DNA from: a virus
Taxonomy: Duplodnaviria > Caudoviricetes
Reading direction: 5' to 3' (one strand)
IMG/VR virus record: IMGVR_UViG_3300048882_000040
Span: 1-27,922 of that record
DNA: 27,922 nt
Shown here piece by piece: positions 3,023 through 8,814 of the stretch. The notes under the pieces are model-generated. The model was not told the DNA's origin. It saw only the letters and a program-made list of their open reading frames with translations, and did no database searches. Every line of letters begins with the position of its first letter. The stretch's first letter is position 1. A program made the translations under genes and the position numbers.

Positions 3023-3718
3023 ATGAGTAGAGCAAAAAAGGTAAGTGCCTGTGCACTTATGAATAAGCAACATTTAGAGTTACAAGAGTTTGACCCATTA
3101 ACGGAGGCCCAAGGGAACTTCTTTGCTAATTATAGTTCCGGTAAGTCCCAAATATTGGCGGGAAGTGCTGGTACAGGTAAAACATTCATGGCATTGTATA
3201 TGGCATTTAATGAGATACTAAACTCTAATCTTAACTATAGAAGAATAGTTATTATTAGAAGTGCCGTGGCCACTAGAGATATTGGATTCCTACCTGGTAA
3301 CCTTGATGAGAAACAAGCAGTATATGAAATACCTTATATTGGTATTTGTAATGAGTTGTTTAATCGTGGTGATGCCTATGGCTTAATGAAGAAGAATGGC
3401 ATTGTAGATTTTATGTTAACCTCTTATGTTAGAGGTATAACTCTTGATGAGACTATTATAATTGTTGATGAGTTTCAAAACTTAACCGCCCACGAAGCTG
3501 ATTCAATAGTAACTAGACTAGGTAAAGGTTCTAAGATTGTATTCTGTGGTGACACATGTCAGACAGACTTTACTAGGAACAATGAAAAGGACATTCATAA
3601 GTTTGTTGACGTCCTTAAAAGAATACCACAGCATTTTACTATGAACGAATTTGTATCGGATGACATTGTAAGGTCAGGTATTGTTAAAGATTATATTAAG
3701 GCAAAGGAAAACTTATGA
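3023..3718 (+). CDS. phoH: PhoH-like ATPase
   Basis: Walker A GSAGTGKT, IGFLPG, VRGITLD, IIVDEFQNLT, TRLGKGSKIVFCGD, DIVRSG. Confidence 0.95.
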   Translation: MSRAKKVSACALMNKQHLELQEFDPLTEAQGNFFANYSSGKSQILAGSAGTGKTFMALYMAFNEILNSNLNYRRIVIIRSAVATRDIGFLPGNLDEKQAVYEIPYIGICNELFNRGDAYGLMKKNGIVDFMLTSYVRGITLDETIIIVDEFQNLTAHEADSIVTRLGKGSKIVFCGDTCQTDFTRNNEKDIHKFVDVLKRIPQHFTMNEFVSDDIVRSGIVKDYIKAKENL

Positions 3719-4269
3719 ATAAAATAGGGCTAGGTTGGGTATTGGCTATAGTGTTATTGGCAACATATGAAAAGGTATATGCATTAGATCCTATCATTAC
3801 AGATTCAACTACAAGAAGCACAGTACACTCGACGGGAGAGGTGAAGACTACAATAGTATCTCCACCACCTTCTGCTATTACTCCTACATTCACAGGTAGT
3901 TCAAACTCGGATTCTTGCACAGTTGGCGTTGCTGGTGCTGTTCAAACACAGATACTAGGTATAAGTGCGGGAACAACTAGTAGAGATTTAAACTGTGAGA
4001 GATTAAAGAATGCCAAGACGTTGTATGATATGGGTATGAAAGTTGCCGCGGTATCGGTATTATGTCAAGATGTAAGAGTATTTGATGCTATGTTAATGGC
4101 AGGAACTCCATGTCCTTATAATGGTATCATTGGTTCAGATGCTAGAATTGCTTGGCAAAATGATAAAGATAATCAACCTAAGAAGGATATAGAAGATGAT
4201 TCGATTGACCCGCTTAAGATACTTACTGGCGTTGGTAGTGCTGTGCTTGGCATCTTACTCTTACTCTAA
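3715..4269 (+). CDS. Exported Cys-containing protein with C-terminal TM (cassette gene 1)
   Basis: ATGA overlap with phoH; signal peptide ending VYA; 4 Cys; amphipathic hairpin between Cys1 and Cys2; hydrophobic C-terminus. Confidence 0.75.
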   Translation: MNKIGLGWVLAIVLLATYEKVYALDPIITDSTTRSTVHSTGEVKTTIVSPPPSAITPTFTGSSNSDSCTVGVAGAVQTQILGISAGTTSRDLNCERLKNAKTLYDMGMKVAAVSVLCQDVRVFDAMLMAGTPCPYNGIIGSDARIAWQNDKDNQPKKDIEDDSIDPLKILTGVGSAVLGILLLL

Positions 4270-5083
4270 CTGGAATTACGGCACAACTAATAATGCTGCT
4301 GGAACTAGTCTTAATTGGGGCATGCCTAATTTGTTTCCAGAGGCTAACAACCTAAGTATTAACGGAGTATATTACAGGTACACACCAATAAAGAATACCG
4401 CAGATGATATGTTAGTACATGTGCAGAATGAAGATGCTATTAATGGGGGATACATCTTTAAAGAAACAGATGATTGGAGTGGTAGACCGGGGGGAACACC
4501 AATTAATAAAGTTATTGGATTACCAAATATACCCCAAGAATTATGGGGTGACGGCTCTATTGAAGTAGAGGGTACTGGTACTGTACAAGATGCTTCCGTA
4601 GTATACAGTTACAAATATGATAATACATGTGTAACCCCATTATCAGATCCTAGCTGCCCTGGGTACGCAGAAGCCTTATTAGGTACAATAAATAGTATAC
4701 CAGAACCAGTAGTATATAATGCATTAGATGACGAGAATGTCAAAGATGTATTAGATAATAAGACAGAATTAAAAGAATCAGAGGAAGAAGAAATATCTGA
4801 TGAAGAAGAAGAAGAAATTGATTTAGATGAGTTATTATCAGAGATTGATAGCAAGATTATGTTGGCTCAGACTATTGCTCAAAATCAACTAATGAAGGCG
4901 ATGACATTGACTGTAAATGTGGATAGTTATTATGCTAAAAAGATTAAGGGTGGTGTTTATAAAGAAACAGTAAGTCTAAAAGATAAACACTTACCTGATA
5001 ATAAACGAGGCGCTAGGCTGGGTCTTGCACAACAAGTAAAGCACACCAAAATGGTTGATATGCAATACAACAAAGGAGAATAG
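4196..5083 (+). CDS. Exported beta-rich protein with CxxPLSDPSCPGY motif and acidic tract (cassette gene 2)
   Basis: Signal peptide ending SYS; Asn/Gly/aromatic-rich N-domain; poly-Glu linker; overlaps the previous gene by 74 nt, so the start is uncertain. Confidence 0.7.
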   Translation: MIRLTRLRYLLALVVLCLASYSYSNWNYGTTNNAAGTSLNWGMPNLFPEANNLSINGVYYRYTPIKNTADDMLVHVQNEDAINGGYIFKETDDWSGRPGGTPINKVIGLPNIPQELWGDGSIEVEGTGTVQDASVVYSYKYDNTCVTPLSDPSCPGYAEALLGTINSIPEPVVYNALDDENVKDVLDNKTELKESEEEEISDEEEEEIDLDELLSEIDSKIMLAQTIAQNQLMKAMTLTVNVDSYYAKKIKGGVYKETVSLKDKHLPDNKRGARLGLAQQVKHTKMVDMQYNKGE

Positions 5084-5084
5084 T

Positions 5085-5579
5085 ATGAAGATTTTATTAA
5101 CAGCAGTAGGTTTAGTATTCGCACTAAATGTAATGGCAGAAGATGTGCCCGTACAAGGTAGCGTACAAATGAGGTGTCTAATTACAACAGATATTCCAGG
5201 TGTCTATGGTAACCCTAATCCACACACACTAAGTACATCAGTAGCAAATGGGGGAGTACTGCCCGTAGTAAGATACGATATTACATTAGCAGATAGTTAC
5301 AAAGCAAAGATTACAACTCCTACGAGTTTCTCGTCTAGTCCGGTACTAAATGATACTGTTACTTGGGCAGGATCAACATCGGTAGCACAAACTTCTGATG
5401 CTGGTATGTCTGGATATGAAGCTGCCAAGGTTACATATGATTCAAGTACTGAGTATGACTTAACAGTTGCAGGATCAACGTGGTTTTCTGCTACCCTAAC
5501 TGCTACAAATGGTTATGATAAAGCATTTCCAGGTGGCGTGTATAACGCTATTTTAGTTGCTGAGTGTATCGCTAAGTAA
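5085..5579 (+). CDS. Putative pilin/fimbrial-subunit-like exported protein (cassette gene 3)
   Basis: AAGGAG SD, ATG 5085; signal ending VMA; N-terminal VPVQGSVQMRC and C-terminal PGGVYNAILVAEC resemble chaperone-usher (Csu/SCPU-type) subunit termini; Thr/Ser-rich. Confidence 0.55.
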   Translation: MKILLTAVGLVFALNVMAEDVPVQGSVQMRCLITTDIPGVYGNPNPHTLSTSVANGGVLPVVRYDITLADSYKAKITTPTSFSSSPVLNDTVTWAGSTSVAQTSDAGMSGYEAAKVTYDSSTEYDLTVAGSTWFSATLTATNGYDKAFPGGVYNAILVAECIAK

Positions 5580-5582
5580 AAT

Positions 5583-5978
5583 ATGCAATTTGTCTCTAAG
5601 CTGATCGCAACCCCCGTGCTTCTGGGCGGATTGATATTAGCATTTGATGCCGGGGCGCACGAGATGACACCAACTTACCCTAAGTTTGAATCCTCTTTTG
5701 TTTCTGGTATATCGAAGACTAAGATGAGATTGTTTAATAAACGTAATGATGTAAGTTATTATCAGATAAATGTATTTGATTCTGAATGGGTAGCAGTGCC
5801 TTTCGTTACACCATATAAAATAATCAAAATGGGATACTTAGAAACTATCGAGTTTGATGTGTATATTAAACAAGGTGATTTGAAAAAAGCAACGTATATA
5901 TGCTCTAAGTCTAAATTAAAATCAATTGATGTTAAGTCAAGTGGTATATCAAGTAGGATATGTTCTAAGATAAAATGA
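5583..5978 (+). CDS. Putative single-domain pilus chaperone-like (PapD N-domain-like) exported protein (cassette gene 4)
   Basis: Signal ending AGA; mature HEMTPTYP...MRLFN...YYQINVFD echoes the N-terminal Ig domain of periplasmic chaperones; 2 Cys. Confidence 0.45.
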   Translation: MQFVSKLIATPVLLGGLILAFDAGAHEMTPTYPKFESSFVSGISKTKMRLFNKRNDVSYYQINVFDSEWVAVPFVTPYKIIKMGYLETIEFDVYIKQGDLKKATYICSKSKLKSIDVKSSGISSRICSKIK

Positions 5979-6385
5979 GATATTTATTTATCATACTGGC
6001 GGTGATAAGTTTAAAGGTTAATGCTAATGCTTTAAGTCTACAAATTCCTAGCATGTCAAACAGTTACGCTTCGGATAAGTTTAGGGCAGGAAATTTAGAT
6101 TGTTCTAATGCTATTGGGGGTACTATGAATTTAGAATTTGGTATGACAGGTATTGTTAATAATGCTCAGTCGCCCTTTAGTTCAGATGATTTGGATAACC
6201 CTACTACAAAAGATGTAGGATTATATGCTAGAATCATTATACCATTAAATGCTCCAAAGGAACGTATTAACTGTAATACCCTATATCAATTAGAGTTATC
6301 AAAGAAACGATTAGAGGTAATGAAATTAGAAGAAGAGTTGAATGCTTTAAGAAGACTTCAATTACAAGGACAATTCGAGAATTAA
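5975..6385 (+). CDS. Exported protein with Cys-bracketed beta-hairpin and C-terminal coiled coil (cassette gene 5)
   Basis: ATGA overlap; signal ending VNA; alternating strands NLEFGMTG and VGLYARIIIPL; helical tail KKRLEVMKLEEELNALRRLQ. Confidence 0.7.
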   Translation: MRYLFIILAVISLKVNANALSLQIPSMSNSYASDKFRAGNLDCSNAIGGTMNLEFGMTGIVNNAQSPFSSDDLDNPTTKDVGLYARIIIPLNAPKERINCNTLYQLELSKKRLEVMKLEEELNALRRLQLQGQFEN

Positions 6386-6386
6386 T

Positions 6387-6890
6387 ATGGCAAACTTAGG
6401 TAAAGACTTAGATAAGATTGAGGATGCCAAGGATAAACTGGCTAATACCACTTTTAATATACTTGGGTATAAACTAACACCCACTCAATTAGGTATGGCA
6501 TTTGCTGCTTTATCTGCTGTACTCGGTACTCTATATGGGGGGTTCACAACGTATCAAAAGATTGAAGGTCTTGCTAACTTAGATGTTGAGGCATATCAGC
6601 AGCAAATGGATGTTATGGATACCAAGATCGAAAGCACCCTAGACTATACAAGAGATATTAAAAATGGTTTAAGAGATGATATTAATCGTATTGAAAAGGT
6701 CGCTGATAGAGTTGAAGATGATGTTAATAAGTTAGAAGATAAAATTAGAGATATGATTGATGATGCTGAAGTTCGATTCGAAACTAAACGTGACCAACTA
6801 AGAACATCAAATAAAGCAGATATTAAAGAGTTAGAAGAAAGACTTAATGCTAAAGTACAAAGAGCATTAGATAATCCATTAGCAAATTAG
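6387..6890 (+). CDS. Membrane-anchored coiled-coil protein (cassette gene 6)
   Basis: TM LGMAFAALSAVLGTLYGGF followed by a long charged heptad region ending ALDNPLAN. Confidence 0.75.
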   Translation: MANLGKDLDKIEDAKDKLANTTFNILGYKLTPTQLGMAFAALSAVLGTLYGGFTTYQKIEGLANLDVEAYQQQMDVMDTKIESTLDYTRDIKNGLRDDINRIEKVADRVEDDVNKLEDKIRDMIDDAEVRFETKRDQLRTSNKADIKELEERLNAKVQRALDNPLAN

Positions 6891-6897
6891 TATATCA

Positions 6898-7056
6898 ATG
6901 TTTGAGAAATTAATACACCGCATCGCGGAAAAAGAATGTTTTAAATCGTGGACTTGGGTCAAGTGTAAATGCTTGGCCTTTTTATTAATAATGATTGTGG
7001 GGGTACCTCTAATAATAGCGGTGAGTACTATGATTGCATCAGAGGTATTGGAATGA
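6898..7056 (+). CDS. 52-aa single-TM protein
   Basis: Hand-translated MFEKLIHRIAEKECFKSWTWVKCKCLAFLLIMIVGVPLIIAVSTMIASEVLE; its stop overlaps the next start (ATGA). Confidence 0.6.
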   Translation: MFEKLIHRIAEKECFKSWTWVKCKCLAFLLIMIVGVPLIIAVSTMIASEVLE

Positions 7057-7601
7057 AAAGTACGTTACAAGGAATTTTATTAGCAGGTATTTTAGGGTTA
7101 CTACTATTGGGGAATAGTAAGTACATATATGCACTCGATGACTTTGACTTAATGAAGTATGGGCCTGAGGATACTATAGAAGTTGTTAGAACAGACTTCA
7201 TTATTAAATTTGTATTGTACAAGTTTCCACAAAGATTAAATGAAGCATACGAAAGTGCTAATGGAGAAGCATTACCAGAAGGGGGGAGTGTAAGAGGCTT
7301 CGCAGTAGTTAAACCTGATGAAGATATTTGTTTTGTACATATCATTATACCAAAAATTTGGGATGATAGAGAATCATTAACTATTATAGGTCACGAAATA
7401 ATGCACTGTGCATTGGCAGACCATAAGCCCATTATTATTAATGATATTGCTGAAACTGAAATTGAAATTGAAATTGAAACTGAAATTGAAACTGAAACTG
7501 AAGTCTTGGGCGACATAGAGGATTTGTATGCTCAAGATCGTATACTAGAACTAGAATGGTTAAAAGAAGATTATGAGAAAATGGGAATTAAAATATATTA
7601 A
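7053..7601 (+). CDS. Exported HExxH zinc-metallopeptidase-like protein
   Basis: Start moved to ATG 7053 (GAGG SD, ATGA coupling); signal/TM N-terminus; IIGHEIMHCALADH. Confidence 0.6.
   Translation: MKSTLQGILLAGILGLLLLGNSKYIYALDDFDLMKYGPEDTIEVVRTDFIIKFVLYKFPQRLNEAYESANGEALPEGGSVRGFAVVKPDEDICFVHIIIPKIWDDRESLTIIGHEIMHCALADHKPIIINDIAETEIEIEIETEIETETEVLGDIEDLYAQDRILELEWLKEDYEKMGIKIY
7452..7499 (+). repeat. Eight tandem GAAAYT hexamers encoding (E-T/I)8
   Basis: gaaact gaaatt gaaatt gaaatt gaaact gaaatt gaaact gaaact. Confidence 0.9.
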
Positions 7602-7960: not shown

Positions 7961-7989
7961 TTGACAAAATGGTATAATCTTGGTATAAT
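7961..7989 (+). promoter_or_regulatory. Sigma70-type early promoter
   Basis: TTGACA-17 nt-TATAAT. Confidence 0.9.
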
Positions 7990-8725: not shown

Positions 8726-8747
8726 GGAGGCTGCGGCCTCCTTTTTT
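8726..8747 (+). terminator. Rho-independent terminator
   Basis: GGAGGC-TGCG-GCCTCC-TTTTTT. Confidence 0.9.
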
Positions 8748-8785: not shown

Positions 8786-8814
8786 TTGACAAAATGGTTA
8801 AATCTTGGTATAAT
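8786..8814 (+). promoter_or_regulatory. Sigma70-type early promoter
   Basis: TTGACA-17 nt-TATAAT. Confidence 0.9.

Follow-up and report, generated by a model that had tools for sequence, protein, structure and literature searches.

Can a tailed phage furnish the envelope of its host with a pilus-like fibre that is exported without an usher? The question is raised by six adjacent genes, here g1 to g6 (positions 3715-6890), in the IMG/VR record IMGVR_UViG_3300048882_000040 (Duplodnaviria; Caudoviricetes), of which we analysed positions 1 to 27,922, a stretch of 27,922 nucleotides that we call the window. A first-pass annotation, made by a model from the letters of the sequence, had read these genes as a phage-encoded envelope cassette resembling a minimal, usher-less pilus or surface-appendage system. 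We find that the cassette is a real, widespread and functionally unannotated system, a putative variant of chaperone-assisted fibre assembly whose pore and function are hypothetical. It is made of two nested modules: module A, g1-(g2)-g6, encloses module B, g3-g4-g5.

The six open reading frames (ORFs), all on the + strand, follow each other closely: g1 (3715-4269, 184 aa) overlaps g2, the module A passenger slot (4196-5083, 295 aa), by 74 bp; g3, the module B subunit (5085-5579, 164 aa, ATG start), begins 1 nt further on and is separated by 3 nt from g4 (5583-5978, 131 aa), which shares an ATGA overlap with g5 (5975-6385, 136 aa); g6 (6387-6890, 167 aa) follows after 1 nt, and another ATGA overlap joins the preceding phoH gene to g1. 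With these overlaps, and gaps of at most 3 nt, the tight coupling seen at first pass is borne out, and so are its claims about export. A simple rule used in place of SignalP (lysine or arginine plus an 8-residue hydrophobic core) finds a Sec-type signal in 79/79 g1, 75/76 g2, 72/72 g3, 66/68 g4 and 64/64 g5 homologues (96-100% per family), against 14 of 140 control ORFs; the lipobox pattern occurs in 0/79, 3/76, 6/72, 2/68 and 1/64 of the same families. The mature chains indeed hold 4, 2, 2, 2 and 2 cysteines, at positions 68/94/117/133 in g1, 145/154 in g2 (a further one, 17, lies inside the signal), 31/161 in g3, 107/127 in g4 and 43/100 in g5; they are invariant in the alignments of g1, g3, g4 and g5 and at least 90% conserved in g2. 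The expected membrane-anchored coiled coil, g6, has an N-terminal transmembrane (TM)-like anchor (52/58), a coiled coil (its Pfam matches are weak and of coiled-coil type), an invariant C-terminal DNPL motif and no cysteine. All six proteins are thus predicted from their sequences to reach the host cell envelope, the signal rule in g1-g5 supporting the location first proposed. For each gene the ratio of non-synonymous to synonymous differences (pN/pS, uncorrected) is 0.13-0.27 against L001.

The homologues co-occur and keep their order, as the first-pass annotation had expected. In the best 80 of 599 viral g1 matches, chosen for likeness to the g1 of the window and not as a random sample, g2 is found in 79/80 loci, g3 in 74/80, g4 in 71/80, g5 in 67/80 and g6 in 63/80, with strand and gene order unchanged in every case; the full set is present in 63/80, and the other 17 all end at a stored contig edge. 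An estimated ~3000 stored viral stretches carry g1 patterns. The neighbours include a family B polymerase, a T5-type small terminase, a central tail fibre J and several unrelated endolysins, and the cassette is seen with T4-like, T5-like and siphovirus tail markers; such varied neighbours indicate that it resides in several phage lineages. The motif TATAAATA, which we take to be the T4 late-promoter consensus, lies within -200 to +60 of g1 in 24/78 loci where about 2 would be expected (background 0.024 per scanned interval), and near g2-g6 in 0-3 loci only; in phages that use the motif, the cassette is therefore probably a late operon starting at g1. The one RNA-labelled sequencing run gave 8 contigs of low depth, scattered over the cassette and the sequence around it and possibly from DNA, and so no expression evidence.

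The six genes do not form a single unit, as had been supposed at first, because modules A and B each occur without the other, which also means that g1 is dispensable for the putative pilus. Module A stands alone in the cultured pelagiphages HTVC023P, HTVC202P, Mosig and HTVC115P, where g1 is followed by a long acidic protein and then by a short coiled coil ending in NPL, itself a relative of g6 (profile comparison E 1.4e-5). Among 80 viral loci retrieved by a search with the g1 of HTVC023P, many of them short, g1 matches in 76 and g6 in 24, and the g2-g5 profiles match no ORF. In this module the slot between g1 and g6 is variable. The g2 of the window has a signal peptide, a beta-rich N-domain, a CxxxxxDPxC motif, an acidic linker and a conserved C-terminal segment, an arrangement that would suit a displayed or tip protein; unlike proteins occupy the slot in CRP-810, CRP-207 and a spring podophage. 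HTVC115P gp53 is the only pelagiphage partner that matches the g2 profile (E 2e-3), so that what is shared is the slot, not a homologue; homology between g2 and the long pelagiphage partner was considered and rejected (profile comparisons E 0.37 and 0.057). GenBank carries "lysozyme" labels on two g6-type TM/coiled-coil proteins, CRP-810 gp51 (L085:5264-5686, E 3.5e-9) and CRP-207 gp73 (L088:3292-3873, E 1e-11), which are likely misannotations.

Module B, on the other hand, leaves the phage world, and to that extent the description of the cassette as phage-encoded must be narrowed: it holds for the cassette in viral loci and fails for the g3-g4-g5 trio, also found in bacterial chromosomes and plasmids. 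A g5 gene is present in 31 genome loci, 18 of them bacterial (17 Hyphomicrobiales and 1 Vibrio), and these 18 have g3-g4-g5, in up to three tandem copies, without matches to g1, g2 or g6 (the Vibrio g3-like genes being recognised by eye); L089-L101, which come from metagenome-assembled genomes and resemble binned phage contigs, were left out of this cellular count. Nitratireductor chromosomes carry module B in tandem repeats and with g3 paralogues, and on two plasmids it sits beside EAL genes. In cellular surveys, the g5 profile matched 1/400 genomes in the class of G005 (this one being the genome at the centre of the survey), 2/401 in the class of G001 and 2/401 in the phylum of G806 (its own centre genome and a weak match off any plausible gene), and the g1 profile matched 0/400 and 0/5. 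Relatives of g3 number 3983 at 90% clustering among 8000 scored; at 50%, g3 clusters number 561. At a loose threshold (E<=1), tblastn with g5 returned 86 phage records, 81 of them from Vibrio phages (best E 3e-6). Each of the four Vibrio phage regions that we read has g4 and g5; g3 is recognised by profile in pVp-1 and Brizo, and D479 and 2.275.O have a similar signal-peptide protein, judged by eye. No Vibrio phage is among the 13 records matched by g1. Module B is carried by the cultured lytic phages pVp-1 and the Thalassavirus phages and module A by HTVC023P, HTVC202P and Mosig, which makes the system directly testable. In Vibrio sp. WXL210 (L119:3011-11881), g4-g5 and then two g3-like genes lie in a mobile element, between two ORFs that by eye resemble a recombinase and a single-subunit RNA polymerase.

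What, then, do the proteins resemble? The clearest answer comes from g4. Its model (predicted local distance difference test score 92) has a single-domain PapD-like fold, 106 aa in the mature form, that aligns over its full length to the N-domains of pilus chaperones: the top match is 9fx8_C, a chain of a type 1 pilus assembly complex (Z 10.9, root-mean-square deviation 2.5, 97 aligned), and further matches are SafB (Z 10.8), YadV (10.3), the CFA/I chaperone (10.0) and PapD (9.7), pilus chaperones making up 9 of the 24 matches listed at Z of at least 8. A g4 profile compared with 14 PapD_N domains scores 22.3 (E 0.0034), above the maximum of 40 shuffles (15.1); Pfam PapD_N itself matches none of 55 g4 family members. 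An invariant cysteine pair lies in the last two strands. The predicted N-domain and the profile score support the earlier view of g4 as a chaperone, and g4 probably chaperones g3.

The model of g3 (same score, 95) is an immunoglobulin (Ig)-like beta-sandwich in which mature residues 1-12, with alternating hydrophobics V3/V5/V9, lie outside any strand of the monomer. The invariant mature cysteines C13 and C143 join the first and last strands, and the chain ends in a GxY..C strand, an ending present in 114/124 full-length relatives. Several relatives have another extension in place of the N-terminal strand and may be comparable to tip or base subunits. We lean slightly towards a polymerising g3, each copy of which would donate its N-terminal strand to the one that follows.

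No usher accompanies this pair, as the first-pass annotation had stated: Pfam finds no usher (PF00577, ~800 aa) in the window, no cassette ORF exceeds 295 aa, and no usher lies beside module B in those loci of bacteria, plasmids and phages that we read. In three of five carrier genomes a separate operon does encode an usher together with a two-domain chaperone; the other two, both drafts, have no usher or PapD_N match. The constant third gene of the module is g5, whose mature product of ~118 aa consists of two alternating strands (residues 33-41 and 62-73) around a variable loop between the invariant cysteines, then a coiled-coil-like helix, all behind a signal peptide; it matches phrog_37374, a family without known function. 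In Vibrio phages the second strand of g5 ends in IGLKLTYKF or VAGIELSYKF, which to our eye resemble outer-membrane barrel strands. The layout recurs in g1 (cysteine, two alternating strands, cysteine, helix), where a signal peptide precedes a Thr/Asn-rich N-terminal part of variable length, a Pro motif, a Cys-flanked, Gly-rich putative beta-hairpin and helices, residues 46-64 also showing an alternating pattern; g1 matches phrog_20531, again without known function. Homology between g1 and g5 was considered and is not demonstrated (profile comparison E 0.14). Such a layout fits hairpin subunits of an oligomeric barrel. From these sequence patterns, g5 is a candidate oligomeric outer-membrane pore, its assembly into a beta-barrel being in our estimate slightly short of an even bet, and g1 a candidate outer-membrane anchor or pore. 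Pfam, NCBIfam and PHROGs give no functional family for g1-g5 (PHROGs places g1, g3 and g5 in unknown-function families), PDB sequence-profile searches with g1-g5 give nothing below E 0.18, and the ESM Atlas gives no usable named match for g1.

Several g1 homologues deserve mention in their own right. In many relatives (P0128, P0130, P0136, P0143, P0151, P0162, P0210), 100-150 residues of Asn/Thr-rich repeats, possibly a beta-solenoid passenger, separate the signal from the conserved domain. A Variovorax replicon (L231:2552-4200) has an unannotated g1 homologue after a secreted Gly/Ser/Ala-rich protein, with response regulators on the flanks. The g1 gene of the spring podophage (L087:3941-4447) is unannotated in GenBank, where two tiny reverse ORFs are annotated instead, and CRP-810 gp53, labelled "OmpA family protein", is a g1 homologue.

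We hypothesize, with a confidence that stays under even, that the cassette, expressed late, is a minimal fibre system of chaperone and subunit whose product is exported through a pore of small subunits. The six proteins would enter the host envelope late in infection; g4 would bind unfolded g3 and complete its fold, g3 would form chains by donor-strand exchange, and the fibre would exit via a ring of g5 in the outer membrane. Module A would add an inner-membrane strut (g6), an outer-membrane anchor (g1) and cargo (g2); that it anchors or tips the fibre is a still more tentative suggestion. As for purpose, the benefit that we favour, conceivable but doubtful, is adhesion of the infected cell before lysis: the doomed cell would become sticky and its progeny would be set free close to new hosts or particles. 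Taken to its full extent, the proposal would be that lytic marine phages encode a pilus of their own, with a chaperone of one domain, a subunit of Ig type and a ring of hairpin proteins, each of ~120 residues, in the place of an 800-residue usher, docked on a trans-envelope display module and made late to glue the infected cell before burst; we consider this complete version rather unlikely.

A number of results weigh against the fibre hypothesis. The fold of g4 is also that of proteins other than chaperones (CsxA, Z 10.7; MSP/ASH domains, up to 9.8), and its homologues, of ~120-140 aa, have one domain where pilus chaperones have two; the second chaperone domain is the part engaged by ushers and subunit C-termini, and g4 lacks it. 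A search for longer g4 proteins gave 1 match, seemingly a frameshift read-through and weak evidence by the tool's own note. The view of g3 as a pilin stands as far as the Ig-like sandwich and its free alternating N-terminal segment are concerned, and falls short beyond that: the best structural matches reach Z 7-8 (maximum 8.1, a range that the search tool rates as unspecific) and are Ig domains of FnBPA, SdrD and other staphylococcal adhesins; none of the 50 matches listed in either structure search is a chaperone-usher pilin; the comparison with the SCPU pilin profile scores 16.95 against a shuffle maximum of 18.5, or 14.6 against 18.3 when 124 relatives are used; and pilin Pfam families match none of 41 g3 relatives scanned. 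An ESM Atlas feature match at 0.95 to an SCPU-bearing bacterial cluster, the family being present in 14% of its members, is offset by these non-significant profile tests. The pore role of g1 and g5 is read from sequence pattern, the fold models covering g3 and g4, and late expression leaves a short time before lysis.

Could the cassette instead act in lysis, as an accessory inside the envelope? Here g6 would be a spanin-like protein with g1 as its outer-membrane partner, or the proteins would form an envelope brace that times lysis. The anchored coiled coil of g6 with its conserved C-terminal motif speaks for this, as do the N-terminal signal of g1 with a C-terminal TM-like stretch (75/80, a feature absent from the first-pass annotation), the late-promoter motif enriched before g1, and the position of module B just before the holin and M15 endolysin genes in pVp-1 and Brizo. 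Endolysin clusters lie in 22/26 pelagiphage-type loci of at least 9 kb and in 12/40 long six-gene loci, counts that are floors (only 7 frequent clusters were counted); the pelagiphage loci, however, are close kin and not independent. Outer spanins are lipoproteins, whereas lipoboxes are rare in the families of g1-g5 (0-6 members in each); spanin systems are not known to include a protein with a chaperone fold; the chromosomal and plasmid copies of module B have no annotated lysis gene in their vicinity; and what is labelled "lysozyme" next to g1 in CRP-810 and CRP-207 is in both a g6 homologue. We judge a lysis role unlikely for the cassette as a whole, bearing in mind that the two modules may serve different jobs and that lysis is more credible for A than for B.

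Other explanations seem less probable still. The exported proteins could obstruct receptors or host pili, by masking or jamming them, or could detect a secondary adsorption, and so bring about superinfection exclusion or lysis inhibition. Their envelope location would suit this, and phage pilus components have a precedent in defence, as far as the accessible part of the source goes (PMC12952977). In D479, moreover, module B lies three genes after rIIA/rIIB. Yet genes for exclusion usually stand singly, act early and evolve fast, and the cassette is a late six-gene operon with conserved order and pN/pS of 0.13-0.27 against L001, which leaves exclusion an improbable function. It is a little less probable again that the proteins decorate virions, as disulfide-bonded fibres that fold in the periplasm and join the particles at lysis: late timing, tail-fibre genes among the neighbours and the placement of module B, in pVp-1 and Brizo, directly after a large gene that may be fibre-like agree with such a role, but the cassette accompanies T4-like, T5-like and siphovirus tail markers alike, the trio g3-g4-g5 is found in non-phage DNA, and g1 and g6 have membrane anchors. 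Least probable of all, and by our estimate very unlikely, is the borrowing of a host usher by a g3-g4 chaperone-subunit pair, with g5 as a periplasmic adaptor and no pore; the usher found elsewhere in 3/5 carrier genomes would allow it, and the 2/5 without one, like the missing second domain of g4, speak against it.

The window that surrounds the cassette is a linear virus record estimated to be 25% complete. Upstream lie a tail-related gene, a DUF1353 gene, a phrog_2524 membrane protein (2699-2998, +), presumably holin-like and near the cassette in 7/80 loci, and phoH (3023-3718, +), translationally coupled to g1 and near the cassette in 5/80 loci only, hence not a constant partner. A terminator-like stem-loop (6956-6979, +; a consensus match only) follows 66 nt 3' of g6. 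The right two-thirds of the window form a replication block that we read as T5-like (split NAD ligase, D5-like regulator, DnaB, primase, PolA, SbcCD, RNR, ThyX); perfect sigma-70 consensus promoters with a TG extension, at 7961-7989 and 8786-8814, open this downstream block, and together with a terminator at 8726-8741 they mark the switch to it. Of the 24 sequencing runs listed for the region, 23 are from hydrothermal vents and 1 is from marine sediment; 9 of the runs may be the source itself. Two long overlapping + ORFs lie at the left end of the window: that at 60-1481 matches T5 p143 in residues 364-436 only, and that at 1357-1911 matches phrog_19883. Behind the cassette, g7 (ORF 6969-7601, likely start near 7053) has a hydrophobic N-terminus, an HExxH motif and, at ~7453-7500, an (IE/TE)n repeat, and is present in 1/80 related loci only.

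If the complete version of the fibre hypothesis is true, very common ocean viruses would secrete donor-strand fibres in a new way and would have found a new strategy to disperse, and a fibre built late by lytic phages would amount to an active change of the infected cell surface. Release outside the cell would be favoured if Synpcc7942_0905/0906 of Synechococcus elongatus are homologous to g3: in the portions of the sources available, Synpcc7942_0905 is reported as the most abundant protein-coding transcript, with a signal peptide (PMC6091082), both are reported as exoproteome proteins, and their double deletion did not stop biofilm formation (PMC11345509). In the literature covered, outside which most subscription papers lie, we found no description of the six-gene system, and the passages of PMC10504331 contained nothing that bears on it.

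How far does the cassette depart from known systems? Prophage FimU-like type IV pilus proteins are also phage-encoded and act at the cell surface, yet, by the accessible part of their description, each is one type IV pilin acting alone to subvert machinery of the host (PMC12952977), unlike a multi-gene, Sec-exported Ig/chaperone set carried by lytic phages. With spanins (Rz/Rz1, T1 gp11) the cassette shares an inner-membrane-anchored periplasmic coiled coil, g6, late expression and frequent lysis neighbours; it differs from two-component spanins in lacking an outer-membrane lipoprotein partner, in its extra exported cargo and in the occurrence of module B outside phages. Curli pores of the CsgG/CsgF type are oligomeric outer-membrane secretion pores that export a fibre protein, and there, as may be the case here, a small subunit would donate beta-strands to an oligomeric barrel; the Variovorax g1 that follows a secreted Gly/Ser/Ala-rich protein adds to the likeness. 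Unlike CsgG/CsgF, however, g1 and g5 are not lipoproteins, have no PDB sequence match and apparently contribute two strands each, with an Ig-like cargo. The closest comparison is with chaperone-usher pili (Fim, Pap, Saf/Caf1, CFA/I, archaic Csu/CupE, ECP), which share (i), a Sec-exported subunit, here predicted to be Ig-like with an N-terminal extension, encoded beside a PapD-like protein; (ii), paralogous subunits; and (iii), on plasmids, the EAL neighbours of module B. FGL chaperones, like g4, also have two cysteines placed in their last two strands. The differences are as marked: an usher is absent, the chaperone is a single domain of 106 aa when mature, the cysteine pair of g3 joins first and last strands and is unmatched with solved pilins, a 118-aa hairpin/coiled-coil protein, g5, is the constant third gene, and the carriers are lytic phages. 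As modelled, the likeness to chaperone-usher pili therefore lies in the chaperone-subunit step, without the usher and the two-domain chaperone; if g5 does replace the usher, the cassette would represent a minimal, possibly ancestral form of chaperone-assisted pilus assembly.

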